DNA of 64,000 nt. Origin: a virus (taxonomy: Duplodnaviria > Heunggongvirae > Uroviricota > Caudoviricetes). This document shows, piece after piece, positions 5,326 through 48,496 of this stretch. Numbering within the stretch: position 1 is the stretch's first letter; each line of letters starts with the position of its first letter. Under the pieces are notes generated by a model. It searched no databases. It saw nothing but the letters and a program-made list of their open reading frames with translations, and was not told where the DNA came from. The DNA lies in IMG/VR virus record IMGVR_UViG_3300025364_000002, one strand, 5' to 3'. The translations under genes were made by a program, and so were the position numbers.

Positions 5326-5443
5326 AGTACGTGTACTATAGCCTAAACTTTTTAAGTTTTAAAGTCTTTTGCAATGAAACAAAATTTCATAGAAATCTGC
5401 AATTTTGCATTTCTATTTTAGTTGAAGTAATATGTGCAATACC

Positions 5444-5914
5444 TTAGGTATTAATTGGAATCCCTGCTTTGATTAGTCTTTCGAATAATTTCATATTGTA
5501 GTGCTTATAGGAACACTCATCCCTAAGTAAAGCTTGGGCATTTACCCACATTGGCAACCCTTCACGGGTCATGCAATGCAATTTGCCGCCAACAATTTTT
5601 TGTGCAAAAAAAGTAAAAGATATCATTGTCCGACCAAGTCCAACATACAGAGGAATGAGAGAACTTTTTTCTACTAAAATACCAGTCTCTTCAAAACACT
5701 CTCGAACAGCAGCATCTTTTGCGGTTTCTTTTACTTCTAAATCTATTTTGCCGCCCGGCAATCCAATGTTTTCAAATTCTTTTCTTTTTGTTATTGCAAG
5801 TATGGAACCGTCCCCACTTGGATTTAGAACCAAAACACAGGCTGACTTTGCGTTAATGAGACCTTCATCAATTTCATTTTCGGTCATAAATGTATTGATA
5901 TTTAATCTATTCAC
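5444..5914 (-). CDS. Nudix hydrolase
   Basis: Nudix box GGKIDLEVKETAKDAAVRECFEETGI (Gx5Ex7REUxEExGU). Confidence 0.8.
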   Translation of the reverse strand: MNRLNINTFMTENEIDEGLINAKSACVLVLNPSGDGSILAITKRKEFENIGLPGGKIDLEVKETAKDAAVRECFEETGILVEKSSLIPLYVGLGRTMISFTFFAQKIVGGKLHCMTREGLPMWVNAQALLRDECSYKHYNMKLFERLIKAGIPINT

Positions 5915-19749: not shown

Positions 19750-20478
19750 TCAGTTGTATTCTGTTCCGCCCTTACGGGTGAGGTAATCACCGCTAACAGA
19801 CTTTAGCTGAACACGGCCAATTTCTTCGCTCCAGCGTTCTACCGTAGGTCGAACAACAACACCCTCACGGATATGCATTTCCTTACCGGAAATAGTCTCG
19901 AAGCCGTCAGTGTACTCGTACAAAACCTTCTTCGAGAAGGGCCCACGGTAAAGCACCGGAACACGCTGAAGACCAAGTCTCTTGCAAGCCGCATCAAGCT
20001 CAGAGTCGTTCAAATAACTGCCAGACCCTGGACGTCCAACATAAATATCAAATACTCTAAAACCGATCTCGACGTCCTTGTCGGCAGAACTGCCATAAGA
20101 AAGGTCCTGAACACCACGTCCAAAAATCTCTCCAAGAACGTAAACCGGCTGTGGATCGAAATCGTGTTTTAGCTGATGACCAAAAGCAAATGAAATACGG
20201 TTGTCCATGTTGTAGTGTCGAGCGACACGCACGTATAGATTCGTCTTGTTGGCTTCGGCATCATACTTCATCGCCAGTCCACGAGCCGAAAGACCCTTGG
20301 ATGAGATAATGAGACGGCCCTCCTCGGGATGGGCATCCCTCGGCGGCATAAGGCCAATCATACACCAGGTGTTATGAACAACAATGCCTTCAGCAATATA
20401 GTTGTTGTTGCCACCATCAATCTCTAAATCATAGAGATCACTATCACTTTCAACATACTCAATCTTAACACAGCGCAT
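19750..20478 (-). CDS. C-terminal half of a fractured Rnl2/Rnl5-family RNA ligase: 36-aa IntC (split-intein C fragment) followed by the C-extein
   Basis: N-terminus MRCVKIEYVESDSDLYDLEIDGGNNNYIAEGIVVHN|T is intein blocks F/G ending HN plus nucleophile T. The extein carries ligase motif III VYVLGEIFG, motif IV EGVVVR and motif V LKSVS. It is in the same frame as ORF 20773..21567. Confidence 0.8.
   Translation of the reverse strand: MRCVKIEYVESDSDLYDLEIDGGNNNYIAEGIVVHNTWCMIGLMPPRDAHPEEGRLIISSKGLSARGLAMKYDAEANKTNLYVRVARHYNMDNRISFAFGHQLKHDFDPQPVYVLGEIFGRGVQDLSYGSSADKDVEIGFRVFDIYVGRPGSGSYLNDSELDAACKRLGLQRVPVLYRGPFSKKVLYEYTDGFETISGKEMHIREGVVVRPTVERWSEEIGRVQLKSVSGDYLTRKGGTEYN
20371..20478 (-). other. 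IntC, split-intein C-terminal fragment (36 aa)
   Basis: Length and sequence style match natural IntC fragments (e.g. DnaE IntC, 36 aa, ending ...N). Confidence 0.75.
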
Positions 20479-20764
20479 TTTTTACTCTTTCTATCGTTTT
20501 TTCTTTTTGATTGTTCCAATCACTTTCCCAAACAATTAGAACTTTGTACCCTCTTTTGAGCAAGGCGGCGGTGCGCCTTTTATCTCTTTTCCATTGTTGC
20601 CCAACAGTCCTGGAAATCCAAGAGCAATATTCGCTTGGGTCGTGAAATTTTGTTGGATTACAATGGAACATATCTCCATAGAATTCCAAGATAACTTTCT
20701 CACTTTTCAACAAGCCGTCTACGATAAACCCTGATATAATTTCTTCACGATTTGACGCCTGCAT
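20465..20764 (-). CDS. Free-standing Vsr-like (very-short-patch-repair fold) homing endonuclease inserted between the intein halves
   Basis: FYGDMFHCNP...WKRDKRRTAALLKRGYKVLIVWESD parallels the Vsr FxDGCFWHxH...RDxxxxxxLxxxGWxVLxVWE pattern; different frame from the flanking exteins. Confidence 0.65.
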   Translation of the reverse strand: MQASNREEIISGFIVDGLLKSEKVILEFYGDMFHCNPTKFHDPSEYCSWISRTVGQQWKRDKRRTAALLKRGYKVLIVWESDWNNQKEKTIERVKNALC

Positions 20765-20772
20765 GGGACTTG

Positions 20773-21567
20773 CTACATGATTGGACTTTCAATATCTTCA
20801 TCAGGCAAAAGTTTGCCAGCTTCCACCCACATTTGTCGGTCACGTGAATAAACGGGGTGATCCTCGGTTAAGGTGAGAGTAGAACCGTTTTCTAAGGTAA
20901 GCTTTACCCATTTTTTATCTTCACTGTTTAGCCGACGCATGCGACCAGTAATAGGTCGCTCAATATATTCCTTGCTTTGTTCATTATAAGATAAAACCGA
21001 CTGAATTGTTTTATCAGCCACTACTTCTGCGATAGACCGCTCGCTTCCATCTACAAGTCGGACCATACTTGCTTCATGCAAGCATCCATGAAGTTTCTCA
21101 GTGAAAACAACCTCTTCACCTTCCTCAAGAATGTGAGGAAAACGCTTAAAATTTTCGATATCGTACTTCAAGGTACGGTCCTGACCAGCAGCGAACACCT
21201 CACCGGAAAGATGGGCCGGAATTGGAGGCTCCCACTTGGTAATTCCAAGAATATTAGCAACATCAGCACCCTCTTGCCACTCAGGACGTGCAGGATACAC
21301 AAGTCCCTGTGAAAGGATGCCACGAAGACGAATGGCCTTTACACGATTCTTTGCCTTTCCGGCAAGCTTACCCTCAAGACCCATTTCACGGAGGAGAGCC
21401 TGAGGAACGACAGCCTGTTCTGGAATGTAGGCAACGAGATCACCGCTCTTAAACTGGTCCTTGCGGACAATTGCTTGGTAATCGCCCACCTGGGCGAGTT
21501 CTAAAGCATCAGCATTGGGGTGTTCAAGAACAGTAATCCGTTCGACAGTTACAGAAAAAGTTGACAT
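20773..21567 (-). CDS. N-terminal half of the fractured RNA ligase: OB-like N-domain, then the nucleotidyltransferase motif I, then a 103-aa IntN
   Basis: ...FTEKLHG|CLHEASMVRLVDGSE...TLTLTEDHPVY...LLPDEDIESPIM*. KxHG is the ligase lysine-adenylylation motif. C1 plus TxxH (block B) is an intein N-fragment. The stop codon directly follows IntN. Confidence 0.8.
   Translation of the reverse strand: MSTFSVTVERITVLEHPNADALELAQVGDYQAIVRKDQFKSGDLVAYIPEQAVVPQALLREMGLEGKLAGKAKNRVKAIRLRGILSQGLVYPARPEWQEGADVANILGITKWEPPIPAHLSGEVFAAGQDRTLKYDIENFKRFPHILEEGEEVVFTEKLHGCLHEASMVRLVDGSERSIAEVVADKTIQSVLSYNEQSKEYIERPITGRMRRLNSEDKKWVKLTLENGSTLTLTEDHPVYSRDRQMWVEAGKLLPDEDIESPIM
20776..21084 (-). other. IntN, split-intein N-terminal fragment (103 aa)
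   Basis: Begins with Cys after KLHG; has block A (CLHEASMV) and block B (TLTLTEDHP). Confidence 0.75.
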
Positions 21568-28385: not shown

Positions 28386-28718
28386 TTACTCCGCTTCGGC
28401 TTTGGGGTTATCAACTGGTTCAGGATCGAGAGTCCATCTCATAAAAGATTGAATTCTAATCTCTTCTCCAAACTTTTTGTTCTGCTCATCCAAAACTTGG
28501 ATAACCTGTTTTGAATCATCAAAAAGCCAGGATTGCTCTAGCAGAGCATCAACACTCTCAGGTGCATTACTAGCAATATGCATTAGCATATTATCAACAA
28601 AAGTTAAAAACTCACTATTTCGTGCAACAAAATCAGTATTGCAAGAAACCTCAATAAGCACGGCAAGACGATTGTTATGGTATTGGTATGTTCGAATTAC
28701 ACCTTCACGCTTAGTCAT
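28386..28718 (-). CDS. Hypothetical protein
   Basis: 110-aa ORF. Confidence 0.45.
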   Translation of the reverse strand: MTKREGVIRTYQYHNNRLAVLIEVSCNTDFVARNSEFLTFVDNMLMHIASNAPESVDALLEQSWLFDDSKQVIQVLDEQNKKFGEEIRIQSFMRWTLDPEPVDNPKAEAE

Positions 28719-30594: not shown

Positions 30595-31446
30595 CTAAAC
30601 CACTGGGGCAATAATCTTAATCGTCTTGTTAAGTCTTAAACGTTTCCATTTTTGTTGGCCAACTCCGTAAGGTTTTGTTGTCCAAGCCTTGTATCGGTGA
30701 AAACCATCAATTACTCGAAATCCACCACCCTTTTTAGGAATTGCTACAATGGCAGGGTACCAACCTTTGGTGGAATTCCATAATCTATTTAGCAACTTAT
30801 TGCTTCCAAGCCCATGCCAAGGGCAAAACCAGACATATTCTTGATATATCGAATTTGAGCATCGCTTTAATATTTCTTTATCAGCATATACTTCTTCAAC
30901 AGGTACTTCAATTAGCTTCCAGCTTTTATACTGTTCAACTTCGGGTAACAAGGAATCGTATTCCTGCTCAAGAACAAACCTAACTCGCTCGGAATTTGAT
31001 CGTTTATTAAATTCCTCCACCCGTTCCAAAAGAACAACCTCGGCTCCTGGTTTAGCAAAGACACCTTCAATTTCGTCTCCGTAGTAACCACCACAAGTCT
31101 CAACTACGAACAAATCATCAACGTTTTCAAAAAGTTTTTTCAAAAACCTCACAGCCAATGCAAAGCCCAATTTTCCTTCGTTACCTTGACCATCTTGAAA
31201 AAAAGTTTCGGCCAAGCCGACAGCGCCAAAGACTGTTATCGGCTTGATTCGAGTGCTTTCAATGGTGCCGCATCGACAAATCTCATCACAACCATATGCA
31301 TTGCAATCGTGATAATAATCAGCTTCAACATGGAGACGATCCCGCCAATCACCTGACAGATTGAGAACAATTTTTCCTTTGTTTTCCTTGTTCATTGATT
31401 CACCTATTTTAAATAAAACTGGGGAATATGTACTAAACAAAAGCAC
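30595..31446 (-). CDS. Protein with C-terminal ParB/sulfiredoxin-like nuclease domain
   Basis: GGGFRVIDGFHRYKAW matches the ParB-N DGxHR signature; N-terminal ~200 aa unassigned. Confidence 0.55.
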   Translation of the reverse strand: MLLFSTYSPVLFKIGESMNKENKGKIVLNLSGDWRDRLHVEADYYHDCNAYGCDEICRCGTIESTRIKPITVFGAVGLAETFFQDGQGNEGKLGFALAVRFLKKLFENVDDLFVVETCGGYYGDEIEGVFAKPGAEVVLLERVEEFNKRSNSERVRFVLEQEYDSLLPEVEQYKSWKLIEVPVEEVYADKEILKRCSNSIYQEYVWFCPWHGLGSNKLLNRLWNSTKGWYPAIVAIPKKGGGFRVIDGFHRYKAWTTKPYGVGQQKWKRLRLNKTIKIIAPVV

Positions 31447-31479
31447 ACCTGTGCAGGTGACACCTGTGCAGGTGTGCTT
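31441..31479. repeat. ~39-bp near-perfect palindrome containing two tandem CACCTGTGCAGGTG units, between the SPFH and ParB-like genes
   Basis: aagcacacctgtgcaggtgacacctgtgcaggtgtgctt read directly; self-complementary about a central A. Confidence 0.7.
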
Positions 31480-31502
31480 GGGATTAATTCAATGCAAACT
31501 AA

Positions 31503-32480
31503 TCACTGACCCATGTTCATGATTAGAGGAGTTTGCTGATCCCCGCCACCAAGAATCACAGTGCGAGTATTTTCATTGGTTGTAATATCTCTGGTAGCAT
31601 CGATTGCACGAAGCCGTAGAAGTTCGGGCGTAATCGAGCGAGAAAGGATTTCATTGGCTTCGGCTTCTGCACGGGCACGAATCAAGCGTGATTCTGCGTC
31701 TCTGTTTGCTTGAATGATAGCAACACGACGCTGTCCTTCTGCCTCGGCAGTTGCACGTTCTGCTTCCTGTTCGGCGGTACGAATTGCCTGCTCACGCTCG
31801 TTACCCTGTTGACGCTGACGCTGAACCGAGGCGATAGACTCACGAATTTCAGGCGGGAGCGCAATATTACGTAGTTGCACGTCATCAATTTGAATAGAAT
31901 ATGATTCCAAATTCCGCTGTTCAAGTGCATTAGAAATGCGACGTCGAACAAGTCGCACCATTTCACGTCCAAGCTCATCACGACTCGTGGAAACCGCAGC
32001 TACGGCATCATATTCTCGCACAGCTTCACGGACAGCAGTGCGAACTGAAGTTTCAACAACTGACTGTTGATAATTCGGCATATATCGTCGGACGCCCGGC
32101 GCCTGGCCTGAATTAAGATGGTAAAGAACCGTAACATCGAGTGTCATTGACAACTGGTCAGAAGACATAGCGTGTAGCGCAGATACCCCAGCCATTGTTA
32201 TATTTTGCGTCTGTATGGACATTTCATCAACTGTTGCGAAGGGATTTACAAAATGAAAACCCTCATCTAAAGTATAATTCTGCACAGAGCCAAAAACAAT
32301 TGGTACACCTATATGACCAGTCTGCACCTGAACTGCGGACGCTAATCCAAAAAACACTAACGATAGCACCAGACCACCAGCTGCACCAAGTCTGGTAAAA
32401 TTAGCTGCATCCTCTAGAAAGAAACTGACAACAAATGCGCCAATAGCCAAGAAGGCTAATACAATTGCTACATAAATCAC
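31503..32480 (-). CDS. SPFH/band-7 (stomatin/prohibitin/HflK-C-like) membrane protein
   Basis: N-terminal TM helix plus long Ala/Glu/Arg-rich coiled region typical of SPFH proteins (AEQEAERATAEAEGQRRVAIIQANRDAESR...); noticeably higher GC than its neighbours. Confidence 0.65.
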   Translation of the reverse strand: MIYVAIVLAFLAIGAFVVSFFLEDAANFTRLGAAGGLVLSLVFFGLASAVQVQTGHIGVPIVFGSVQNYTLDEGFHFVNPFATVDEMSIQTQNITMAGVSALHAMSSDQLSMTLDVTVLYHLNSGQAPGVRRYMPNYQQSVVETSVRTAVREAVREYDAVAAVSTSRDELGREMVRLVRRRISNALEQRNLESYSIQIDDVQLRNIALPPEIRESIASVQRQRQQGNEREQAIRTAEQEAERATAEAEGQRRVAIIQANRDAESRLIRARAEAEANEILSRSITPELLRLRAIDATRDITTNENTRTVILGGGDQQTPLIMNMGQ

Positions 32481-32495
32481 GATTATTATCCTCCG

Positions 32496-32717
32496 TCACC
32501 TATATGGTGATTCTTTGTTTGTTCCACGTTTTGCTAGTTCTTCATTCAGCATTTTAAGGTTATCCTTAAGAGAAGCAGTAGTTGACTGCTCCAAAATAGT
32601 CAGACGTTTTAGACGTTCTGAACGCTTTTTTAACTCGGTCGAACAGACCCAGCCAAAAATAACTCCACAAACAAACGTGGCACTAATCAAAATTGTTACA
32701 AGCATATCAAGTCTCAT
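32496..32717 (-). CDS. Small membrane protein
   Basis: N-terminal TM helix. Confidence 0.4.
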   Translation of the reverse strand: MRLDMLVTILISATFVCGVIFGWVCSTELKKRSERLKRLTILEQSTTASLKDNLKMLNEELAKRGTNKESPYR

Positions 32718-32956
32718 TTATATCTTGAGATTATCTTCATGAATTCATTGCCAAGCTTGGTAGCAAGCACTAAGCCAACAGCAATCGCTATCAAAGCAAC
32801 TGACCCAGCACCGATTGTAATTCCAGTCCAAAATGTTAGTTCTGCTTCAAAAGCAGTTCCAAAAATCTTTGAGAAGACCAACTACTAGCCATATCGTTAA
32901 GCCAATAGTAACAACTGCGCCAATCAAAACCCCAAATGCAAAAAAGTAACCGCTCA
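32714..32956 (-). pseudogene. Small two-helix membrane protein gene, apparently frameshifted (ATG frame, 36 aa, followed by a +1-frame hydrophobic continuation of 53 aa)
   Basis: Hand translation: MSGYFFAFGVLIGAVVTIGLTIWLVVGLLKDFWNCF* then, in the +1 frame, ...IFGTAFEAELTFWTGITIGAGSVALIAIAVGLVLATKLGNEFMKIISRYK*. Confidence 0.3.
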
Positions 32957-33190
32957 TTATTCGTCCTCGTCTAAGTCATCGTAGAATGAAACTTCTCTCT
33001 TGACAAACCTGATAATAGATTCGCCATATGACCCCCTGTTTCCAGCGAGGCCCAACTTAATTGTCTCCTCTTCGCTCTCTTCTACGAGAAGATTAATTTG
33101 AAATCCTTTACCTATCACAATTTCTTCCCTTTGGTCGAAACACCATACGTTAGCCTTATAAGAGTACGCAATTGTCGGTTTATAACCCAA
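32957..33190 (-). CDS. Hypothetical acidic protein
   Basis: 77-aa ORF. Confidence 0.4.
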   Translation of the reverse strand: MGYKPTIAYSYKANVWCFDQREEIVIGKGFQINLLVEESEEETIKLGLAGNRGSYGESIIRFVKREVSFYDDLDEDE

Positions 33191-33337
33191 CCAAAAATTC
33201 CGGCTACAACTGCGACAGTAGCCGCTCCAGATGCAAATCCAATCCAGAACATGTTCTACTTATCTTATCGGCCTGATAATATCTTTTAAAAGAATAACCT
33301 GAATTACCAAAAAGCTTTGAGTATGCATCTTTAAGAT

Positions 33338-33889
33338 TCATTGAATTTCTCCGAGTGCTAACTTGAGGATATAACGAGTAATCTCTCGGTCTTCTTCCCT
33401 GCGCTTTTGCTGTGCGTAATCCAATCCAAGTCTGTTGTAGTCCTCTTCATCCAATTTCGAAACCTTTTTGTGATATCTTTTTACCTTGTTTTCAAATGAA
33501 GTGTAATGTTCGGTTGGATTGACCAACGACAAAAATGCTTCATTTTCTCCTCGGCGCCAACGATTTGTTGTGGTGGATGCGGTACAAGATATAACCTTGC
33601 AATTAGGCCAGTTTCTAGCGCCCGCCATGCACAATAAATCTGCACCTCGGGCACTTACTGCCTTTTGCTTATATTCGCTTCCAAGCTCTTTACCTTTGGG
33701 AGACACATAAGCTCGATAAATAAAACTCTGGCTTTCCTCGTATGAATATGGCACATGAATAGCATGCAAGATCCTACTTGCACCAAGAGTCTGGGCGAGT
33801 TGATGAATACCAATTCCACCACCAGTTACCACAAAAGCAAGTTTGGGACCTTGGTAACGATGTACGAAATCATCAAATACGTCTTGCAC
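33338..33889 (-). CDS. Hypothetical protein with N-terminal Gly-rich Rossmann-like loop (FVVTGGGIGIHQ)
   Basis: 183-aa ORF; GGG loop; translationally coupled (overlapping) with the ARH gene. Confidence 0.45.
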   Translation of the reverse strand: MQDVFDDFVHRYQGPKLAFVVTGGGIGIHQLAQTLGASRILHAIHVPYSYEESQSFIYRAYVSPKGKELGSEYKQKAVSARGADLLCMAGARNWPNCKVISCTASTTTNRWRRGENEAFLSLVNPTEHYTSFENKVKRYHKKVSKLDEEDYNRLGLDYAQQKRREEDREITRYILKLALGEIQ

Positions 33890-34613
33890 ACTTTTCTCGC
33901 AATCTTTCCAGTTTTTCGTCTAGGCTTCGAAGGTAGTCTAATCCATACGGACCATTTTCTAAACCTTCATAAAGATGCTGTGGTAGGTCGTTTTCAATTT
34001 CTTTACAACAAGAACCAATGCCCAGCGCCATGGCCGCAATTGAATCTACGTCGCCCGTATAATCAATACACTCTTTAAGGCATTCGCTCAAAGAATTATT
34101 TCTCAATACTGATGAAATTGCTGCCTTGACACAGGGAATAGCATCACTAGTACAACGTTTTCCTACCGGCCAAAGATCTTTTTTATCGTTGAAAATTCTA
34201 CTTGAACCACTACCAAGTACAAGGAAATCAACCAAATTATTCTTTTTGCCATCATTGTAAAGAAAATAGTGTGTAGCCAAAGCAACTGCTTGCGAGGAAG
34301 CAATTGCATCAGGCGTATCGTGAGTCACTTGAGCTTGCATTCTAGAAAATGTTAAGACTTTATAAACGTTCGGTAGGTATCCGATCGAACACGATCTCAT
34401 TGCTGCGCCGCATTTATTTGACTTCTTCGACAGCTTGGCAAGCAACTCTTTACCAGACTCAACTTGATCTAAGATAGCTTGAAAACGACGTGAATATGCA
34501 TTTCTTGCATCACGTTTATACACCTCCACCCATTTGTTTGCGAGTTTGAGCGGAAGTGTATTTGGATCAAAATGGTCGTTTTCCAAAAGATACTCTGTTA
34601 CACCAATTGACAT
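33873..34613 (-). CDS. ADP-ribosylglycohydrolase (DraG/ARH family)
   Basis: C-terminal signature YTGDVDSIAAMALGIGS corresponds to the GGDTDT(I)AA(I)AGA metal-binding motif of the family. Confidence 0.7.
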   Translation of the reverse strand: MSIGVTEYLLENDHFDPNTLPLKLANKWVEVYKRDARNAYSRRFQAILDQVESGKELLAKLSKKSNKCGAAMRSCSIGYLPNVYKVLTFSRMQAQVTHDTPDAIASSQAVALATHYFLYNDGKKNNLVDFLVLGSGSSRIFNDKKDLWPVGKRCTSDAIPCVKAAISSVLRNNSLSECLKECIDYTGDVDSIAAMALGIGSCCKEIENDLPQHLYEGLENGPYGLDYLRSLDEKLERLREKCARRI

Positions 34614-34826
34614 CTAGGTGTCATCTGTATATGAACCTGCTGGCAAATGTCCTGGAAGATTGTGCGGATAATATGTACTCAAATCATTTTTGATCTGGGT
34701 AAGTCGCTCAGGTTTTGCAAACTCAAAACCTCCTCCATAAGCATCCCCAATTCCGATTTTCACCAACATGCCATTCTCCTACTTGTTACAAATGAGCAAA
34801 GTTCAACGAATCGGACTTTATCTATC

Positions 34827-35288
34827 TCAACTAGCATGCCTTACCCAATCTTTTTCAAATGCTGCCTTTAAATCTTCATAATCTTTTCGAGGCATAGAAG
34901 ATTTTACCTTTTGAAGGATAGCTGCTGCGTGCCTTGATTTCCCAAGGACTTTCTCTTTTGCCGAGAAATAAAGATTTGTAGGAACGATAAATGGAAGCCA
35001 AAGTGGAAGCGTGGGCAATGAGAACAAAGCAACGCCTATGGCTCCCGAGCCCATATTTTCCTTATTAATAATAAGGCTCGAACAAGTGCTGTTTATCCCT
35101 TGGCTTTCAATGGCAATGACATATTGGTTGCCCTTTTTATCTGAAAGATAAAAAGAATCTAAACCAGTTGTCTTGTTTTTCTTGCGTTCAACAAATTTAA
35201 GTTTTGGAATCATTGGAATGTCGGCCCATACAGCCCAGGCTCCAAAAAGTATAACACCTGATAGAATTGCCGCTTCTTCAAAATTCAT
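34827..35288 (-). CDS. Membrane-anchored hypothetical protein
   Basis: N-terminal TM (ILSGVILFGAWAVWA). Confidence 0.4.
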   Translation of the reverse strand: MNFEEAAILSGVILFGAWAVWADIPMIPKLKFVERKKNKTTGLDSFYLSDKKGNQYVIAIESQGINSTCSSLIINKENMGSGAIGVALFSLPTLPLWLPFIVPTNLYFSAKEKVLGKSRHAAAILQKVKSSMPRKDYEDLKAAFEKDWVRHAS

Positions 35289-35382
35289 ACTAACCTACTT
35301 TCCTTCGTAGGACGACGTCCTACAGCGCACTTTATATAATCTTTCAAGATTTCTTTGGCTTTCTCGGCCTCATAATTTTCTA

Positions 35383-35985
35383 CTATTTGGGAGCCACCTC
35401 ACGGAAATTGGTTAGCATTGAATTTCGTACCGGTTTCCATTTTTCTTCGTAATGCTGCCAATCTTCACTCAAATCATCCATTATTTCTTTAAAAAGATGA
35501 TTAACTTCGCTGTATCTAAAAATAGATCGTGAAGTTGCAATCTGGATTCCGAAGCTAATGATTCTGATTGAGTGCCACAAAGACTTCTTGCCTCGCTCAA
35601 GTTCTTTTTCACGATCATACGGCGAAACAAATTTTTTCTTAGCTTTGACCCAGGAATGACTAGACTTCTCTGAAAGAGAGTGCCTTAGTCTAGCTTTATC
35701 CAGTTTAAACTTCCAAGGAACATCAGGTTGAATAAGAACCTTGTCACTTGGAAGATGATAGCACTCCAAGGCCATAATGTGATGTTCATCTAACAAACGT
35801 TGGAAATGATTTGGAGTGAGATACCTGATATTAATCAAACCCTTGTTCATTTCGCCTAGACGAACCTGATCCTTTATTGCGACATAGTCCCAATCTGAAT
35901 CAGAACGAGCAGTGCCATACACTCTGCTCCCAAAAGGATAAAGTGCATAGTAACTGTCCTTAGGCAATTGAGGTTGATGTTGCAC
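35383..35985 (-). CDS. Minimal nucleotidyltransferase (Pol-beta superfamily) protein
   Basis: GS...D.D signature FGSRVYGTARSDSDWDYV; 200 aa; abuts NAMPT gene with 1-nt spacing. Confidence 0.55.
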   Translation of the reverse strand: MQHQPQLPKDSYYALYPFGSRVYGTARSDSDWDYVAIKDQVRLGEMNKGLINIRYLTPNHFQRLLDEHHIMALECYHLPSDKVLIQPDVPWKFKLDKARLRHSLSEKSSHSWVKAKKKFVSPYDREKELERGKKSLWHSIRIISFGIQIATSRSIFRYSEVNHLFKEIMDDLSEDWQHYEEKWKPVRNSMLTNFREVAPK

Positions 35986-35986
35986 A

Positions 35987-37573
35987 CTAACCTCGATATC
36001 GATTAATCAGGGACTCCACCTCAGTCTGGAGTAAATCACTTCTTCGACCCGCAGAAAATGGCATTTCATCGAATTCACGGATTACACGAGCCTCACAGGT
36101 CATGAAATCATCAGTGAAGCCAGGGCCGAAAGGTTCATCAGAAGTGCCATCGTAATAGGTAACCAATGCATCATCACCAAGTTCGCCAGGTGCCGCAAGA
36201 GTGACCCCAGAGGTAAGGGCAATATCATCACGGAGAACCATGCATTCTGGGAGAGTCTGCTTACCAGGAGAATTGCTCAACTTGATAACTGGACGATCGT
36301 CGTTGCCGACAGCACAGAGAGCAAATTTGGTGCTCATGTGGTCCCTGTTGATATTGTTACGAAGATGCCCGCCAATACTGAAAATACCACATCGCCATGG
36401 AACAAAACCGGCCGCAAGAGCTGCGTCGGTAATTTGAAGAACACTATCAAACGATTCACCGTTACCAACAATAAATCGAAGCGTGGTAGAAACATGACGT
36501 GTGACACCATCAGCACACAAGTGCTCAGCCATAAGCCCAGCCTGATGTGCCTTTTGTAGAGTACCAATCACCATATCTGTCGAATCGCCTGAATCAGGAC
36601 GGGCAACAACGGTTCTTCCAGAGCCATCCGCCTGAGCCCTAAGGGCAAGGGGGATAAGGTGTTTCTCAAGCGCAGCCCAATAATCATAACAATCACCAAC
36701 CATGCTGAGTAATTCGTGATTGTCAGCAGTATCGTACATGTTCTCATAACAGTCGCCTTCGACTGCATAACCCTGCACGATGCGATGCGCAAGAGCTTTC
36801 ACCGAAGAGCCAAAAGCAGCTGGTGCGCCATTTTTCCAGTTCTGGAAAGCAGCACGGAACGTGTCCGTACCAAACCAGACATAGTTGTGAACCCGACCCA
36901 CCAATTCCGATTCCATTGGAGATGCTGCTGCCCTGTCGCCGAAATCATGAATCATGAGTCGGGCAAAAAACATGCACTCCTCGTCGCTAACCGAGTCAGG
37001 CTCAAATTTCCTGATGAGATTGTAGGCATACTTCAAAAAGTGTCGAGCGGCGGTCAAACGCTCCGTGGCAGCCCAAACATGCAGCAGGGTGGACTCGAAC
37101 CAAGGAACCAGCGGTCCAAACCCAGGCTCTGTAGCCTCCACCCTGAGGAATGGCTCGTGCGGATAAATTACAGAGCCTTCGGGCATTCCAACGACCTTGA
37201 GTGGAAGGTAGCCTCCGTATTCCTTGACGACTCGTCGCCACATTTCCTCAGGAAATTCGAAATCGTCAAAAGATCCGTCGTACTTTGCCTTTCGGCCCTT
37301 CAAAAATTCGATAGTCTCATCGATTTCGGAATTGGTGATCGGATCGTAAAAAAGCAAGTCGCAAAGCTGTTGCAAACCAGCAAAGACAATACGCTGGTCT
37401 TCAGGCGAATAAAACGGCTCATGTGCATGAGGAAACTTCCTGAAAGTACCGTAATACTTGGAATTTTCCGTAGCCTCTTGGCTCTCGAAGGTAAATCCGT
37501 TAATGGTGTAAGCGTCACTCCAGAGCATTCTGGGTGTTCTATGATATCTTCTTGCGGGTAGTTTCTTTGCCAT
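35987..37573 (-). CDS. nadV: Nicotinamide phosphoribosyltransferase (NadV/NAMPT-like, type II PRTase family)
   Basis: 528 aa with family-typical segments (IHDFGDR, long central PRTase core); GC-rich relative to flanks. Confidence 0.75.
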   Translation of the reverse strand: MAKKLPARRYHRTPRMLWSDAYTINGFTFESQEATENSKYYGTFRKFPHAHEPFYSPEDQRIVFAGLQQLCDLLFYDPITNSEIDETIEFLKGRKAKYDGSFDDFEFPEEMWRRVVKEYGGYLPLKVVGMPEGSVIYPHEPFLRVEATEPGFGPLVPWFESTLLHVWAATERLTAARHFLKYAYNLIRKFEPDSVSDEECMFFARLMIHDFGDRAAASPMESELVGRVHNYVWFGTDTFRAAFQNWKNGAPAAFGSSVKALAHRIVQGYAVEGDCYENMYDTADNHELLSMVGDCYDYWAALEKHLIPLALRAQADGSGRTVVARPDSGDSTDMVIGTLQKAHQAGLMAEHLCADGVTRHVSTTLRFIVGNGESFDSVLQITDAALAAGFVPWRCGIFSIGGHLRNNINRDHMSTKFALCAVGNDDRPVIKLSNSPGKQTLPECMVLRDDIALTSGVTLAAPGELGDDALVTYYDGTSDEPFGPGFTDDFMTCEARVIREFDEMPFSAGRRSDLLQTEVESLINRYRG

Positions 37574-37684
37574 GCGGCCTCCTATGGAGCCAGACTAACA
37601 CTAAGTGGTGGGCGTGTAAAGCCCAAAAGCTCTTAGCTTTATCACCACTTGAGTTAGTTTACCATAAGTTGGCTAGGATTTGAA

Positions 37685-38011
37685 CTAGACTTTAAAGCTC
37701 GACCCGCAGCCGCAAGTCGACTTTGCTTTAGGGTTGATAAATTTGAAACCAGCACCCATTAGGCCATCTACATAATCAATGATTGAACCTTCTATGTAAG
37801 TCATCGACATCATATCAACAACAACTTTTATTTCGCCAAATTCAAAGACATGGTCAGTGTCATTAACATTTTCCTCTTCTTCAAAAAAGAGATCATGGGT
37901 ATATCCAGAACATCCACCACCCTTAATTCCTGTACGAATTATTGGCGTCAAATCTTCCTTTTGGGCGATTTCTTTAACCTTATCTACTGCTTTATCAGTT
38001 AGTTCTAACAT
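37685..38011 (-). CDS. A-type Fe-S cluster carrier (IscA/ErpA/HesB family)
   Basis: GGGCSGY...C-terminal CGCGSSF signature. Confidence 0.8.
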   Translation of the reverse strand: MLELTDKAVDKVKEIAQKEDLTPIIRTGIKGGGCSGYTHDLFFEEEENVNDTDHVFEFGEIKVVVDMMSMTYIEGSIIDYVDGLMGAGFKFINPKAKSTCGCGSSFKV

Positions 38012-38487: not shown

Positions 38488-38797
38488 TCAAATGTTCTCT
38501 AAACATGTTTATAGCTTCGTCTACAGCTTTGTAAAGCTTATCATGAACACTTGTCTTAAATGAACAAGCAGGTTCATTACCAAGTTTTGACTTGGTCCAA
38601 ATGGTAATAGAAAACTTATCATTCGGCAATTTGTTCAATTGCCATCCAAAAGCCGAGTCTAATTCACCAAATTTATCAGAGAGATTCATTGAATTAATTA
38701 TTCTTCCTATTTTATCTTGATGTTTAATCAACATCAACAATCTTGCCTTGAATGAGTGCTTTATCCTGAAACACGTCATCGAAGAATGGAATAACAA
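38468..38797 (-). CDS. Hypothetical protein
   Basis: 109-aa ORF. Confidence 0.4.
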   Translation of the reverse strand: MLFHSSMTCFRIKHSFKARLLMLIKHQDKIGRIINSMNLSDKFGELDSAFGWQLNKLPNDKFSITIWTKSKLGNEPACSFKTSVHDKLYKAVDEAINMFREHLSDCSLC

Positions 38798-39299
38798 ACT
38801 TTCTTCCCTTGTAAAGGGTATAGAAATCTTCTACATCCTGTGCTAATGGCAAAATCACACGAGATTTTACAGTCATGTTGTCCCCATGTGTTTCTATCAA
38901 TTCGGCCATACTCCCTTCGGGAGTCTTTTCTACAAAAATAACTGAATCCTGTTCAAAAGCCGAACCCAATCTCATTATGTCATCCTTGGTAATATTTGGA
39001 ACGACAAATGGTCTTTCGACATTTCCATATCTACCACTAACCTGATAGAAACCATACCCAAGTTCTCTAAGCTCTTCTGCCAATTCACGATTTCTTTCTC
39101 GGTTTTGCTTTGGAGTTAGCTTTTGTGCCATTGGATTTTCAGCTGTAATGATTCCAATGGTGTCAATACTTGGCTCCATTCCAGCCAAACTACGCACTAG
39201 TCGAGCATAACCGCCTTCCTCAAGGTGTTCTTCATTGAGCATGCCGACAATTCGTCGGACTTCTTTTCGTATGATTTCTTTTAAAATTTTATCAATCAT
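38724..39299 (-). CDS. Hypothetical protein
   Basis: 191-aa ORF. Confidence 0.45.
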   Translation of the reverse strand: MIDKILKEIIRKEVRRIVGMLNEEHLEEGGYARLVRSLAGMEPSIDTIGIITAENPMAQKLTPKQNRERNRELAEELRELGYGFYQVSGRYGNVERPFVVPNITKDDIMRLGSAFEQDSVIFVEKTPEGSMAELIETHGDNMTVKSRVILPLAQDVEDFYTLYKGRKFVIPFFDDVFQDKALIQGKIVDVD

Positions 39300-39673: not shown

Positions 39674-40252
39674 TCAGACCTCAGCCTGGTCTCCCCACAC
39701 GTCCCAGCCTGTGACTTTTCCTCTTGCGAAAACTTCGATTCTGGGTCTTTTGCCATAAGCTTGTTCGATAAGCTTACGAAATATAGCAGGTTTTGAACTG
39801 TGTGATTTTTTACCACTAACCCTTGGAGCCAAAACAACATGTGGAAGTTTTTCGTCCAAAAGTTTAAAGGGCCGACCTTGCTTACTCGTAGTTGCTAACA
39901 ATAAGTATTCAGTTGTTGGCTTACTGTAAGTAGCACGAATACCCTGGCCATTAATGATACCATTGTCGCTCTTGCGAGTTTTTACCCAGACATGAGCAAC
40001 GCCCCTAAATTGCAAACCCCATGCTTCAATGGCTTCGATTGCAAAATGCAAACGTGGACTTGTTGCCCAGCAAAAAACAGCACCTGGTTTATTCAGGATA
40101 TTGCGAATAGGAAGCTTTTTGATATCATCCACAGACATCAAATTGTAGTGCTTGCCGGCAGCAGCATTTTTATTTGGATCACCGTAGTATGGCCACGGTG
40201 GATCAATATAGACTATGTCGTATTTCTTATTTGGCCACACAAGACTGGACAT
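39674..40252 (-). CDS. MT-A70 family N6-adenine DNA methyltransferase
   Basis: DIVYIDPPWPY catalytic motif near N-terminus, 192 aa. Confidence 0.75.
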   Translation of the reverse strand: MSSLVWPNKKYDIVYIDPPWPYYGDPNKNAAAGKHYNLMSVDDIKKLPIRNILNKPGAVFCWATSPRLHFAIEAIEAWGLQFRGVAHVWVKTRKSDNGIINGQGIRATYSKPTTEYLLLATTSKQGRPFKLLDEKLPHVVLAPRVSGKKSHSSKPAIFRKLIEQAYGKRPRIEVFARGKVTGWDVWGDQAEV

Positions 40253-42143: not shown

Positions 42144-42483
42144 GTCTAATCTCTTCTAAGTCCTGCTCAAAGAATATTAGTTTTCTTTTTCCTATTAGTA
42201 ATTCAACAGCTGGTTCATGTTCTCTTGATAGAAATGCAACTTGAACCTTTCTTAACTCCAGACCTATTAAGTCGGTAAAAATGTACTCAACCGGCAAAAA
42301 CTCTGTGTTGACCAAATATATTGTTTCATCTTCATCGAGTCCAAAAATGGACAATGTTTCAACTGGTTCTTTTCGCTGAGCGGCTAATATCGGATTGACA
42401 AAATCAGTTTTACTTATAGCCTCAAAAACTATAAGCAATGGATCACGGATGGAAAGTTTGCATCTGTAAAGTGCCATAGCCAT
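42136..42483 (-). CDS. Hypothetical protein
   Basis: 115-aa ORF. Confidence 0.4.
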   Translation of the reverse strand: MAMALYRCKLSIRDPLLIVFEAISKTDFVNPILAAQRKEPVETLSIFGLDEDETIYLVNTEFLPVEYIFTDLIGLELRKVQVAFLSREHEPAVELLIGKRKLIFFEQDLEEIRHE

Positions 42484-43246
42484 CTAAACGCTTTTTCATA
42501 ATTGCTACAGCATCTGGGTTTTCATCAACCAATGTTACGTTTCGTCCATGCATAGCCCCCGCCTCGCCAAGAGTGCCTGAACCCGCAAAGAAATCCAAAA
42601 GGTGTTCTCCAGGATTTGAGTGTACTTTTACTATGCGTTCGATTATAGCCATTGGTTTTTGAGTTGGGTAGCCTAGTCTTTCTTTACCGTTTGTTGGAAC
42701 GATAGTGTTCCACCAAACATCTGTCGGTGTTTTGCCTCGCTTAGCCTTCTCGGCACCAACAAGACCCGGAGCCATATATGGGATGCGATCTATCGCATCG
42801 TAGTTATAAGTATATTTTTTCAAGTCTTTTACATACCAAAGAATGTTATCATGTTTACAGGGCCACTTGGTTTTAGGTCTTCCGCCATAATCATACGCCC
42901 AAATTATTTCATTTTTGAACTTTTCTCTACCAAAAATTTTATCACAAAGCACTTTTACATAGTGAATTTCACGGTAATCCATATGAATAAAAAATGAACC
43001 ATCATCTGTAAGCAATCTTTTTGCTTCTTCAATTCTTGGCTTTATCCAATCTATAAAATCATCGAATTTATCTTTGTATGAACCATGATGACTTGATTGA
43101 ACCTTTTTTGTATTAAACGGAGGATCTATTACAATTAGATTAAATTTTTTATCAGGCAACGATCGCAATATTGGCAAATTGTCCCCTTGATAAATTTTAA
43201 TTGTTGGCATACAAAAAGTTTCCTTCTTTACTGTTTCTTTTGCCAT
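42443..43246 (-). CDS. DNA methyltransferase (N6-adenine/N4-cytosine class, DPPF motif)
   Basis: IVIDPPFN catalytic motif and C-terminal AdoMet-binding FFAGSGT. Confidence 0.8.
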   Translation of the reverse strand: MAKETVKKETFCMPTIKIYQGDNLPILRSLPDKKFNLIVIDPPFNTKKVQSSHHGSYKDKFDDFIDWIKPRIEEAKRLLTDDGSFFIHMDYREIHYVKVLCDKIFGREKFKNEIIWAYDYGGRPKTKWPCKHDNILWYVKDLKKYTYNYDAIDRIPYMAPGLVGAEKAKRGKTPTDVWWNTIVPTNGKERLGYPTQKPMAIIERIVKVHSNPGEHLLDFFAGSGTLGEAGAMHGRNVTLVDENPDAVAIMKKRLDGYGTLQMQTFHP

Positions 43247-43973
43247 TGATGATAGCTGAAATTACTGGCTGTGGAATTCCTAATACTTTTGCTGCTTCAT
43301 ATTGGCTTTCAAAAAATTCGGATGAACCATCGGAACGAATGTAAACTATTCGTCTTTTATTTCGTTTGGGGCTTTGTGCACGAGACATAGCTTTTTCAAC
43401 ATCTTCCATTTTATGAACAAAGGTCCAACCTTTAGCATATGTGGCACGACCTTTTAGAACATTTCTAATTGCTTTTTCGTTACAACCAAGAGCTTTTGCT
43501 GCTTTTTTTTGTGCGGCAAATTTTTTTATTTCTTTTGTTTTAACATTTATAGCTATCACTGCTTTACTGCCTGGTCTATTTGCAGCGATTTTTTTACAAG
43601 TTTCTAGGGGTAACTTCTTACCCAATTTCCTTTTACGCTGCTTTTCCTTTGTTTTTTTAGAAGTCTTTACTCCCTTTCGTCCACCTCGACCACCCTTATC
43701 AGAATTAATCATATTTAAGTTCGGCCAGAATTGTTGAATGTATTCAAATTCAGCTATGTAAGCCTCGTCTTCAGTTGAGAACTCTTTTATTAATTCTATT
43801 GATATACTATCTTTATATTTTTTAAGCCAATTCAACTTTCTTTTACGTTTTTTATCATAAAAATGTTGTTTTAACCGTTTTTCTAAAGTTTGGCCTGTAA
43901 CTCCGATATAAAATTTAGGACTTTTCGATGAAATGATTTTATAAAGCTTGTGCATATTAATATGTACGCACAT
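43197..43973 (-). mobile_element. GIY-YIG homing endonuclease with C-terminal NUMOD-like DNA-binding repeats (probable true start at 43955)
   Basis: KLYKIISSKSPKFYIGVTGQTLEKRLKQH (GIY-YIG core with catalytic R...H); repeated AAKxLG...(I)xNxLKG helix motifs at C-terminus. Confidence 0.75.
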
Positions 43974-48387: not shown

Positions 48388-48422
48388 TTTTTTTGCTTTC
48401 CAATTTGTTTCATCTTTTTAGC

Positions 48423-48496
48423 GAGACCTGTGGGATTTGAACCCACATCACTCCGGGTTAAAGCCGGCCGCATTACCAATTTTCTGCCAAGGTCCC
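48423..48496 (-). tRNA. tRNA with anticodon UUA (ochre-type suppressor tRNA; type I, 74 nt)
   Basis: Hand-folded: acceptor GGGACCT/AGGTCTC (one G-U), U8, D-loop with GG, anticodon stem CCGG/CCGG with 7-nt loop C-U-U-U-A-A-C (U33, anticodon UUA, A37), 5-nt variable loop, T-arm GTGGG-TTCAAAT-CCCAC, discriminator G. Confidence 0.65.

Follow-up and report, generated by a model that had tools for sequence, protein, structure and literature searches.

The NAD+/ADP-ribose cluster and its setting

Does the run of genes at positions 30595–38011 of this huge-phage DNA form an NAD+/ADP-ribose module, and which product would turn NMN into NAD+? The stretch analyzed here (the window) covers 64 kb of a genome of at least 461 kb. 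A preliminary description had proposed a higher-GC island of bacterial origin, in which a nicotinamide phosphoribosyltransferase (Nampt) was paired with a minimal nucleotidyltransferase. The open reading frames listed there were all recovered, co-directional and tightly packed on the minus strand (Table 1), and the cluster is one of NAD+/ADP-ribose-related genes centred on an intact Nampt. We consider it slightly better than an even guess that the region represents this phage's form of an NAD+ salvage module common to a clade of huge phages, partly disabled here.

Table 1. Positions of the features discussed, with the evidence for each assignment
Feature	Position	Strand	Evidence
Stand-alone Nudix hydrolase, 30 kb off	5444..5914	-	PF00293 1.6e-9
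283-aa protein, short ParB/Srx-like C-terminal motif, syntenic neighbour	30595..31446	-	
SPFH/Band_7 membrane protein	31503..32480	-	PF01145 8e-29, PHROG 200 6e-53
45-codon stump of HIGH-superfamily nucleotidyltransferase (putative NMNAT)	33204..33341	-	N-terminal match to relatives
CinA C-terminal/PncC (NMN deamidase) fold protein without Ser/Lys dyad, 183 aa	33338..33889	-	
ADP-ribosylglycohydrolase (ARH; ARH3/DraG-type), 298 codons, one in-frame TAG	33873..34769	-	PF03747
153-aa protein, two predicted membrane segments	34827..35288	-	hydropathy
Pol-beta-fold nucleotidyltransferase, HEPN-like helical C-terminal domain, HalB/RlaP-like, 200 aa	35383..35985	-	
Divergent NadV-type Nampt, 528 aa, intact	35987..37573	-	Pfam, PHROG, NCBIfam
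IscA/ErpA-type Fe-S carrier	37685..38011	-	PF01521 1e-15, TIGR00049 1e-33
Suppressor-type tRNA, anticodon UUA, no encoded CCA	48421..48496	-	ARAGORN, Rfam RF00005 54 bits

Gene composition gave no sign of an island. Only the genes for Nampt (GC 0.490, z 2.7; GC3 z 2.1) and the SPFH protein (GC 0.469, GC3 normal) were raised, those for the Pol-beta nucleotidyltransferase, the ARH and the CinA-like, IscA and ParB-like proteins lying near the window mean of 0.40 (within 1 sd), and an aminoacyl-tRNA synthetase gene (0.480) and an RNA ligase gene (0.476) elsewhere in the window are as high. Because only Nampt is clearly GC-rich and is matched by this synthetase, the GC profile contains no island, and the bacterial acquisition deduced from it is not supported.

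The gene order is kept in seven related huge-phage loci (L004, L006 and L124–L128). L124 and L125 have the order IscA, Nampt, CinA-like protein and HIGH-superfamily nucleotidyltransferase. In one sub-clade, a pair consisting of the Pol-beta nucleotidyltransferase and the ARH is inserted between Nampt and the CinA-like gene; L004, L006, L126 and L128 show this arrangement with an intact ARH, and L127 shares it with the HIGH gene frameshifted. Among relatives this colinear, shared gene order argues only weakly for a functional link. The IscA/ErpA gene is a conserved upstream neighbour of Nampt (in L004, L006, L124, L125, L127 and L128) with no evident NAD link, and the SPFH/Band_7 gene is a syntenic neighbour kept in relatives and probably unrelated to the module. 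Profiles confirmed both of these identities and that of the Nudix hydrolase, which matched NadM Nudix domains at the Nudix box only and is not specifically similar to them. For the 283-aa protein, the earlier ParB-like label survives as a short PHROG motif (28 residues, 228–255; E 0.003) with no Pfam match. The 153-aa protein had no family matches, and tblastn found no counterpart in L004 or L006; it is variable, without conservation in relatives.

An intact Nampt

Family profiles, structural matches and active-site residues agreed in identifying a NadV-like nicotinamide phosphoribosyltransferase. The protein matched Pfam NAPRTase (2e-12) and PHROG 448 (2e-42), scored 162 bits against NCBIfam NF006629 (cut-off 405), and had Xanthomonas Nampt 7yqo (3e-31) and rat/human NAMPT (5e-20) as its best PDB matches. 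In an alignment to these Nampts, the PRTase residues F193, R196, D219, H247, R311, D313 and R392 are kept. Their loss had been named as evidence against the cluster reading, which is therefore not refuted on this point. The phosphate loop FSIGGHLRNNINRD is as long as in Nampts and does not contain the Namat motif, and the alignment places N at D354 and A at E246 (PMC12774641). Around the catalytic His, the clade reads ALAHR, compared with TEHS in typical NadV; this departure and that at D354 weigh against the salvage reading, in which nicotinamide is the predicted substrate. Identity with the orthologues of the seven relatives is 72–90%. NadV is found in 33% of jumbo phages (PMC9503650); moreover, an Nmnat accompanies the KVP40-type Nampt in 94% of the phages that have one, and this pair counters NAD+-depleting defences (10.1101/2024.02.11.579819).

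A lost nucleotidyltransferase and a CinA-like protein

Six of the seven relatives encode, directly after the CinA-like gene, an intact HIGH-superfamily nucleotidyltransferase of ~210 aa with the motifs PGSFNPLHxxH and SSSxIR. The corresponding stump in the window matches the beginning of its L004, L006 and L125 counterparts over residues 1–18 (MNLKDAYSKLFGNSGYSF) and keeps the ATGA overlap with the stop of the upstream gene; it had been missed in the first reading of the window. Pfam CTP_transf_like matched three of four HIGH nucleotidyltransferases (best 2.7e-6), and the best-labelled matches were to NadD/NMNAT, with none of the thresholds of the curated NMNAT/NadD profiles reached. Since the NadD/NMNAT matches are sub-threshold and a profile comparison with NadM aligned the HIGH motif only, this putative NMNAT could be another adenylyl- or cytidylyltransferase. 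Within the 64-kb window, neither a canonical NMNAT or CTP_transf_like gene nor an Adps-like gene was found.

The protein encoded just upstream of the stump had been taken for a Rossmann-like GGG-loop protein. Its AF2 model (pLDDT 93) has instead a CinA/PncC fold, as the top 21 Foldseek matches in the PDB are all CinA/PncC (E 6e-7 to 1.4e-5, TM 0.54–0.64). The catalytic K63 is replaced by an invariant S53 and S31 by V, whereas G46, S48 and Y58 in the binding site remain (PMC5384747).

These observations suggest that the ancestral core likely consisted of the NadV-type Nampt, the CinA/PncC-fold protein and the ~210-aa HIGH-superfamily nucleotidyltransferase, which would provide a NARP2-like route from nicotinamide and PRPP to NMN, and from NMN and ATP to NAD+. 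Such pathways may counter NAD+-depleting defences or feed the phage's own NAD+ consumers, and the inserted ARH3/DraG-type enzyme would release ADP-ribose from O- or N-linked conjugates. In this strain, only the Nampt step is clearly intact; since the HIGH gene is reduced to a stump, NMN adenylylation would have to be left to a host enzyme or to a gene outside the window.

An amber codon in the ADP-ribosylglycohydrolase

A second lesion lies in the ARH gene. The reading frame 33873..34613, previously regarded as the gene, does belong to the ARH family (PF03747, 6e-23; best PDB match ARH3, 2.7e-9), but it represents only the distal 246 codons of a longer gene with a TAG inside. This in-frame TAG (34614..34616, minus strand), flanked by profile positions 8–52 and 54–274, occupies a conserved Gln position: the window reads TDDT*M, and the seven relatives, whose intact ARH measures 289–298 aa, have Gln there, as seen in CAG (L004), CAA (L006) and TDDTQM (L126–L128). 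The same TAG occurs in 17 contigs, and three TAG-bearing loci from three samples are identical over 2741 bp. The gene overlaps the next one by 17 nt. The UUA-anticodon tRNA could decode UAA and also, through wobble, the UAG of the ARH; the amber-bearing ARH is either null or rescued by this phage suppressor tRNA. Gene identities, folds, motifs, synteny and both lesions are thereby demonstrated for the cluster as a whole, whereas enzymatic activities, a role in the pathway and a purpose against defences are inferred.

The Pol-beta nucleotidyltransferase

A Pol-beta-type gene does begin 1 nt past the Nampt stop, as had been described. It was further proposed that its product replaces the (H/T)xGH NMNAT as a non-orthologous NMN adenylyltransferase, with the ARH and its partners supplying ADP-ribose. 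The 1-nt gap and the lack of a canonical NMNAT in the window fit this proposal, as does a Nampt-family gene within 10 kb in 14 of ~87 loci of the nucleotidyltransferase family, spread over ~7 tree branches and including the NARP1-type L046 and L058. However, the Pol-beta fold is closest to HalB, the best structural match, and to the aminoglycoside nucleotidyltransferases, whose acceptors are hydroxyls instead of phosphates. The family occurs together with a canonical NadM-Nudix NMNAT in six other phage loci; the clade has its own HIGH-type enzyme two to five genes downstream, intact in all but one of the closest relatives; L124 and L125 carry the Nampt module without the Pol-beta enzyme; and NAD genes are absent from the surroundings of ~84% of the family's loci. 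Given the Pol-beta fold and the proximity to HalB, we rejected an NMNAT identity, and the proposal as a whole is very improbable. A toxin–antitoxin identity, which had been named as speaking against the cluster, was also rejected, the sole match to MntA being a 23-residue motif (21 bits, cut-off 60).

The most likely substrate of the enzyme is a nucleic-acid or tRNA end, not NMN. The whole region could also be read as serving RNA repair and translation support: an RlaP-type enzyme would restore RNA or tRNA ends, NAD+ genes would lie near since RNA repair and ligation in phages consume NAD+, and the ARH and CinA-like protein would remove ADP-ribose by-products. Iyer et al. (2021, PMC7824862) describe RlaP as the commonest template-independent nucleotidyltransferase among jumbo phages and as mirroring RNA ligases. 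In the family studied here, 17/87 loci have an RNA ligase no more than 10 kb away, 29/86 contain tRNA genes, and the enzyme sits inside tRNA arrays in L069, L081, L074 and L035; the window also holds genes for two RNA ligases, three proteins like aminoacyl-tRNA synthetases, PTH2, a tmRNA and tRNAs. However, the window protein has no Pfam RlaP match, which 16 of 75 relatives show, mostly below threshold; the RNA ligases are 14–33 kb away; and the window yielded no KptA/Tpt1. We regard this explanation of the region as possible, although on balance unlikely.

The genes might alternatively be independent anti-defence functions, with Nampt opposing NAD+ depletion, a HalB-like enzyme making oligo-dA that holds the Hailong HalA channel shut, the ARH acting as an orphan antitoxin-like enzyme that undoes ADP-ribosylation by host toxins, and the dyad-less CinA-fold protein binding nucleotides or acting as a sponge for them. 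HalB is a negative regulator of HalA, working via poly-dA (PMC13434031), and phages are known to use orphan antitoxin-like enzymes as counter-defences (PMC11825919). The retention of binding residues without catalytic ones would suit a sponge, and the Pol-beta enzyme adjoins NARP1, NARP2 and lone NadV alike, as island clustering predicts. Nevertheless, identity to HalB is only 13–17%, PADLOC returned no match, and the RlaP and MTPAP profile matches, one YqeY fusion, and the RNA-ligase and tRNA-array neighbours favour RNA over dA synthesis, which makes this reading distinctly doubtful.

Comparison with known systems

Hailong HalB (PDB 9dbh, 9dbi and 9dbj), of similar size, shares its architecture with the 200-aa protein: a minimal Pol-beta domain carrying GS and DxD at the N-terminus, followed by a helical C-terminal domain. 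Besides its low identity, the window protein differs from HalB in being phage-encoded, in having no HalA-like partner and in profile hints toward RNA nucleotidyltransferases. RlaP (PF10127, RNA-ligase-associated) is likewise a nucleotidyltransferase of Pol-beta type and common across jumbo phages, often with RNA ligases, a PNK-HD-like kinase/HD protein and tRNA arrays in its vicinity, and some relatives match its profile weakly; however, the window protein is below the Pfam threshold and, at ~200 aa against a 249-position model, forms a separate sequence family. The CinA-like protein resembles the PncC/CinA C-terminal domain (NMN deamidase; PDB 2a9s, 4ct8) in fold and in its GxS and Tyr substrate-site residues, but has Val and Ser for the catalytic Ser31/Lys63; the only 16 homologues found come from contigs of huge-phage size or from short metagenomic ones, and the seven contexts examined all fall in this phage clade. 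The ARH matches ARH3/DraG-type enzymes over its full length, with the metal-site motifs GDAxG, TDDT and GDxDS and bacterial homologues, cyanobacterial included, of ~46% identity at most, differing by its amber codon in this strain.

Like NARP1 (Adps + Namat), the locus uses a Nampt homologue, and the same Pol-beta family adjoins true NARP1 operons in L046 and L058; however, the window has no PRPP-synthetase-like Adps, and its Nampt lacks the Namat motif GSXoXoXoTRD, which in L046 reads GSYTYQYVTRD. The likeness to NARP2 (Nampt/NadV + Nmnat; NadV and NatV of Vibrio phage KVP40) lies in a Nampt-type PRTase with its catalytic residues and a phosphate loop of Nampt length, and in the relatives' HIGH-superfamily adenylyltransferase candidate in the same gene string, which predicts the conversion of nicotinamide to NMN and then NAD+. 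In contrast to NARP2, this candidate is a stand-alone protein of ~210 aa, far from NadM/NadR, without a Nudix or kinase fusion, below all curated thresholds and deleted in the window; a CinA/PncC-fold protein always lies between or beside it and Nampt; and the Nampt clade has ALAHR at the catalytic His and N at D354. We thus regard the locus as a partly disabled variant of the known NARP2 pathway, with unexplained accessories.

Genomic setting and composition of the cluster

Between 29.8 and 38.5 kb of the window, every gene lies on the minus strand in tight packing (the features are listed in the table below). Contigs as long as 461 kb carry the cluster proteins with 100% identity, and the closest deposited phages are the uncultured LR745206 and LR756502 (635 and 642 kb); the source of the window is a huge phage. 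No match was obtained by megablast of the region against phage GenBank sequences, and a PADLOC search returned nothing for any cluster gene. Since a promoter and terminator scan of the region gave no signal above the shuffled background, transcription units could not be drawn. Family searches identified an SPFH/Band_7 protein, an IscA/ErpA Fe-S carrier and a SIMPL protein as cluster neighbours; the 'ParB-like' label goes back to a 28-residue PHROG match (E 0.003).

The preliminary description regarded this region as a higher-GC island, suggestive of a bacterial source, and the GC and GC3 profiles speak against an island. Only the Nampt gene was raised in both GC (0.490, z 2.7) and GC3 (z 2.1); the SPFH gene had a raised GC (0.469) with normal GC3, and the other five of the seven listed genes (Pol-beta nucleotidyltransferase, ADP-ribosylglycohydrolase (ARH), CinA-like, IscA and ParB-like) deviated by less than 1 sd from the mean of the window (0.40). 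Equally high values occur outside the cluster, in an aminoacyl-tRNA synthetase (0.480) and an RNA ligase (0.476). We accordingly rejected a horizontally acquired GC island.

Elsewhere, the window holds three aminoacyl-tRNA-synthetase-like genes, two RNA ligases (one with an intein), an EF-Ts fragment, PTH2, a tmRNA and two tRNAs; the synthetase, EF-Ts and PTH2 set is typical of huge phages. Between the halves of the intein-split RNA ligase lies a small endonuclease-like ORF (20465-20764; MTES_1575/DUF559 matches). A tmRNA was also found near the Pol-beta nucleotidyltransferase of another locus of that family, L081. The block of methyltransferase, homing endonuclease and DUF3293 genes is located just upstream of the cluster and is kept in the related locus L004. 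The stand-alone Nudix protein matches the PADLOC candidate family PDC-S07 (3e-7), and its match to the NadM Nudix domain is confined to the Nudix box; together with the adjoining metallophosphoesterase it may process nucleotides or ADPR as a pair that stands apart from the main cluster.

Features of the cluster and of the remaining window
Feature	Position	Strand	Evidence or remark
Stand-alone Nudix with calcineurin-like metallophosphoesterase directly upstream	4477-5914	-	
Class II Asp/Lys/Asn-type aminoacyl-tRNA synthetase	13110-14525	-	
Class IIb synthetase core	18702-19439	-	
RNA ligase, split by intein/Hint element	19750-21567	-	PHA02142 OB-fold + PF09414
EF-Ts N-terminal fragment	28386-28718	-	
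ARH, 298 codons, interrupted	33873-34769	-	PF03747
Pol-beta-type nucleotidyltransferase, generic	35383-35985	-	family searches; begins one base past Nampt stop
Nampt, nicotinamide/nicotinate phosphoribosyltransferase family	35987-37573	-	Pfam NAPRTase 2e-12, PHROG 448 2e-42
DUF3293/SAM-lyase-like protein	38724-39299	-	
MT-A70 DNA methyltransferase	39674-40252	-	
N6/N4 DNA methyltransferase	42443-43246	-	
GIY-YIG/NUMOD homing endonuclease	43197-43973	-	
GluRS/GlnRS-type class I catalytic domain, 306 aa	46245-47165	-	no anticodon-binding domain (GluQRS-like size)
Suppressor-type tRNA, anticodon UUA	48421-48496	-	no encoded CCA, discriminator G
PTH2 peptidyl-tRNA hydrolase	48755-49111	-	
tmRNA, tag peptide ADNAPLALAA	53940-54294	-	Rfam 127 bits

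A divergent Nampt with conserved catalytic residues

Family searches agreed with the preliminary naming of the first gene as NAMPT-like, and its PRTase catalytic residues proved not to be missing. When the protein is aligned with rat NAMPT, with Xanthomonas Nampt and within its clade (human numbering), F193/R196 (HDFGDR), D219 (GTDT), H247, R311/D313 (RPDSG) and R392 are kept, as are D16/Y18; the exceptions, Asn at D354 and Ala at E246, are shared with the closest relatives. Among solved structures, it comes closest to Xanthomonas Nampt (3e-31), followed by mammalian NAMPT (5e-20). The enzyme is divergent, as its score against NCBIfam NF006629 was 162 bits, compared with a cut-off of 405.

We also considered the possibility that this gene encodes the Namat of a NARP1 (Adps + Namat) pathway, in which the signature GSXoXoXoTRD gives ADPR-PP specificity (PMC12774641). 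In length and in its Gly-Gly, the phosphate-loop/helix segment FSIGGHLRNNINRD agrees with Nampt, and it lacks this aromatic signature. In addition, no Pribosyltran or Prs-type match that could represent the PRPP-synthetase-like Adps was detected in the 64-kb window, and tblastn with the Adps of two NARP1 loci (L046 and L058) found nothing in the 20.6-kb segment 25383-45985. The NARP1 reading was therefore rejected. Because the catalytic residues are kept, the Namat signature is missing and no Adps was detected in the window, the protein is, by sequence, an enzyme of the NadV/Nampt type, and probably an active one.

Loss of a HIGH-superfamily nucleotidyltransferase

Gene order was compared among seven related huge-phage loci. 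L124 and L125 have IscA, Nampt, the CinA-like gene and the gene of a ~210-aa protein in this order, with neither the Pol-beta nucleotidyltransferase nor ARH; in L004, L006, L126 and L128, Nampt is followed by the Pol-beta nucleotidyltransferase, small ORFs, an intact ARH, the CinA-like gene and the gene of the ~210-aa protein. L127 shares the latter order with a frameshifted ~210-aa gene, which appears in two frames at 5554-6128 via a frameshift or an assembly error; if real, this split represents a second independent disruption of the gene.

The ~210-aa protein carries the motifs PGSFNPLHxxH and SSSxIR, and three of four members matched Pfam CTP_transf_like (best 2.7e-6). Its best-labelled NCBIfam matches were nicotinate/nicotinamide-nucleotide adenylyltransferases and PPAT, with NadD, NMNAT and PPAT models all below cut-off, and in PDB comparisons and hhalign against NadM the HIGH motif alone aligned. 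By its motifs and profile matches, the protein is a HIGH-superfamily nucleotidyltransferase, and its genomic context suggests a putative NMNAT.

In the window, only a 45-codon ORF remains (33204-33341). Its first 18 residues, MNLKDAYSKLFGNSGYSF, agree with the N-termini of the relatives, and it retains the ATGA overlap with the stop of the CinA-like gene; the remaining ~600 bp are lost. No CTP_transf_like gene was found in the 64-kb window, which thus lacks the NMN adenylyltransferase that a NARP2 (Nampt + Nmnat) phage itself encodes. Nmnat is reported to be encoded as well by 94% of those phages that carry a KVP40-type Nampt (Osterman et al., 10.1101/2024.02.11.579819). The lone Nampt of the window would then rely on enzymes of the host, or on a gene located in the remaining ~400 kb of the ≥461-kb genome; among the matches listed in a metagenome scan for NadM, none was on a contig of this size.

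The Pol-beta nucleotidyltransferase is not an NMNAT replacement

The preliminary description proposed that the 200-aa nucleotidyltransferase adjoining Nampt could supply the adenylyltransferase step in place of a canonical NMNAT. Its predicted model (pLDDT 96) consists of a minimal Pol-beta domain followed by a HEPN-like helical bundle, with the active-site motifs GS and DxD and a third acidic residue, E74; the (H/T)xGH motif is absent, and neither the motifs ((H/T)xGH and ISSTxxR) nor the Rossmann-like HIGH fold of the HIGH-superfamily NMNATs (NadD/NadM/NadR) were found. The closest structures are HalB and ANT enzymes. Moreover, because members of the family co-occur with canonical NadM, the protein is no general NMNAT replacement. 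The proposal was abandoned; the attraction of a minimal NMNAT stems from the missing gene, not from a new enzyme.

The family is large, comprising 2078 clusters at 50% identity. Among 75 members, generic Pol-beta models matched 70 and the poly(A)-polymerase palm 34; Pfam RlaP (PF10127) matched 16 of the 75 relatives at E ≤0.05 (best 1e-4, mostly below threshold) and did not match the window protein. One member is fused to a YqeY/GatB-like domain. A reading as an MntA antitoxin, for which a 23-residue motif match was the sole support, was rejected. RlaP is the commonest template-independent nucleotidyltransferase of jumbo phages and is paired with RNA ligases (Iyer et al., PMC7824862). An RNA ligase lies within 10 kb of the gene in 17 of 87 family loci (14-33 kb away in the window), and tRNA genes were present in 29 of 86 loci, in four of which the gene sits within a tRNA array. 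Our reading of the protein is that of a HalB/RlaP-like enzyme whose probable substrate is the end of a nucleic acid.

A Nampt-family gene was found within 10 kb of the Pol-beta nucleotidyltransferase in 14 of ~87 loci (within 3 kb in 11 of these), spread over ~7 separate branches of the nucleotidyltransferase tree. The 14 include NadM+NadV loci of the NARP2 type (L001, L003, L007, L009, L025 and L052), lone-NadV loci and the two NARP1 loci L046 and L058, the former with the exact Namat motif GSYTYQYVTRD. The tendency to adjoin NAD+ reconstitution genes is real and unexplained.

In L046 (6999-9974) and L058 (7085-9937), which contain true NARP1 operons, the Adps-like and Namat genes are separated by an additional small ORF of 145 or 115 aa. 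Directly downstream of these operons comes the HalB/RlaP-like nucleotidyltransferase, with an RNA ligase no more than 6 kb away.

A CinA-fold protein without the deamidase dyad

For the 183-aa CinA-like protein, previously called Rossmann-like, just 16 homologues were found. Their contigs are either of huge-phage size or short metagenomic ones, and all contexts examined belong to the phage clade of the window. For its predicted model (pLDDT 93), the top 21 PDB matches in Foldseek were all CinA/PncC NMN-deamidases (E 6e-7 to 1.4e-5, TM 0.54-0.64). Residues of the substrate site are present (G46, S48 and Y58 in AtCinA numbering). Val and Ser take the places of the catalytic dyad Ser31/Lys63, invariantly in the 16 homologues, with VVTGGG where ESCTGG is expected and YSYEES where YSxEAK is expected; the AtCinA mutants S31A and K63A are inactive (PMC5384747). 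Thus, the PncC reading is confirmed for the fold and rejected for the catalytic dyad: the modelled fold links the protein to NMN chemistry, and it is no canonical deamidase.

An amber codon in the ARH gene and a suppressor-type tRNA

The preliminary identification as an ARH was upheld by PF03747 (82 bits, cut-off 26) and the metal-site motifs GDAYG, TDDT and GDVDS, and the closest structure match was ARH3 (2.7e-9); its proposed extent was too short, since the gene continues to 34769 and is cut by an in-frame TAG at 34614-34616 (YTDDT*MSIG). The Pfam profile is covered at positions 8-52 before the TAG and 54-274 after it. The relatives have no stop and a Gln there (TDDTQM; CAG in L004, CAA in L006). 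As the split gene recurs on 17 contigs, and three fetched loci show no difference over 2741 bp although they come from three samples, the TAG is no assembly error. The gene may be a null, may yield a split protein (an ATG directly follows the TAG) or may be read through.

Bacterial ARH homologues, cyanobacterial included, show ~46% identity. ARH domains occur in only ~5% of jumbo phages, and macromolecular ADP-ribose conjugates are favoured as substrates (Iyer et al., PMC9503650). In NARP1, the accessory enzymes Adpp and RyDEP convert derivatives of ADPR so that NAD+ can be rebuilt; by analogy only, we infer that ARH might have a comparable role.

The UUA-anticodon tRNA could in principle read UAA, plus UAG via wobble. 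Its D-arm and anticodon stem resemble the class-II-like tRNA-Leu of related phages, but its variable loop is short. The nearest tRNAs in the related loci were Leu(UAA/CAA) and Glu(UUC) at 74-75%; Gln tRNAs reached at most 63%, and a Gln-derived ochre suppressor restoring Gln was not supported. The 306-aa GluRS/GlnRS-type domain is encoded 1.3 kb away; an anticodon-blind synthetase could in principle charge a suppressor tRNA. Amber-suppressor-type tRNAs (CUA; ARAGORN label 'Pyl') were also observed in three other huge-phage loci, a few kb from the Pol-beta nucleotidyltransferase (L008 6070-6142, L018 12864-12937 and L023 14214-14287).

Genome-wide recoding was rejected for the window, where no further in-frame stop had homology support and all three stop codons end genes. 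Same-frame ORF pairs abutting at TAG-ATG or TAA-ATG, as at the ARH stop, occur at 57796-58545 and 7727-8338 (minus strand); homology evidence for a single gene was found for neither pair.

Proposed organization and comparison with known systems

We propose that the core of the module is likely a NARP2-like unit of Nampt, CinA-fold protein and HIGH nucleotidyltransferase, to which the Pol-beta nucleotidyltransferase and ARH would have been added within one sub-clade; the window strain carries two lesions, the HIGH nucleotidyltransferase deletion and the ARH amber codon. The cluster noted in the preliminary description was borne out in part, without its central NMNAT interpretation.

The conflict between phages and bacteria is actively fought over NAD+ reconstitution by phages (NARP1, NARP2 and NARP3), and accessory genes by which these pathways are extended, such as Adpp and RyDEP, are only now coming to light. 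The locus adds three candidates from uncultured huge phages: a stand-alone, highly divergent HIGH nucleotidyltransferase for the Nmnat step, its constant companion, a PncC-fold protein without the deamidase dyad, and a widespread HalB/RlaP-like nucleotidyltransferase that is a repeated neighbour of both NARP types. The locus also shows module decay in nature, by deletion and amber codon, in a phage with a UUA-anticodon suppressor tRNA. The divergent Nampt, the dyad-less protein and the very divergent HIGH nucleotidyltransferase could form an undescribed third route, in which the dyad-less protein might be a non-canonical amidase feeding a NaMN-specific adenylyltransferase, or an NMN-handling or sponge subunit. 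The HalB/RlaP-like family, with >2000 clusters and ~7 branches beside NARP1, NARP2 and lone NadV, could be a general accessory and no bystander. These two linked ideas, the trio as a third NMN-based route and the Pol-beta nucleotidyltransferase as a general NAD+ reconstitution accessory, seem to us improbable.

Compared with Hailong, the window nucleotidyltransferase has a fold like that of HalB, but the sequence identity is only 13-17%, with no PADLOC match. Furthermore, Hailong pairs HalB with HalA, a large transmembrane channel, whereas the 153-aa two-segment membrane protein downstream in the window is not conserved in relatives. NARP1 differs in having Adps next to the Nampt homologue, a gene missing from the window. 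With NARP2, the window Nampt shares the catalytic residues and the Nampt-type selectivity helix, and we regard the locus as a variant of NARP2-type NAD+ salvage, a known kind, that is disabled in part and has three accessories of putative role.
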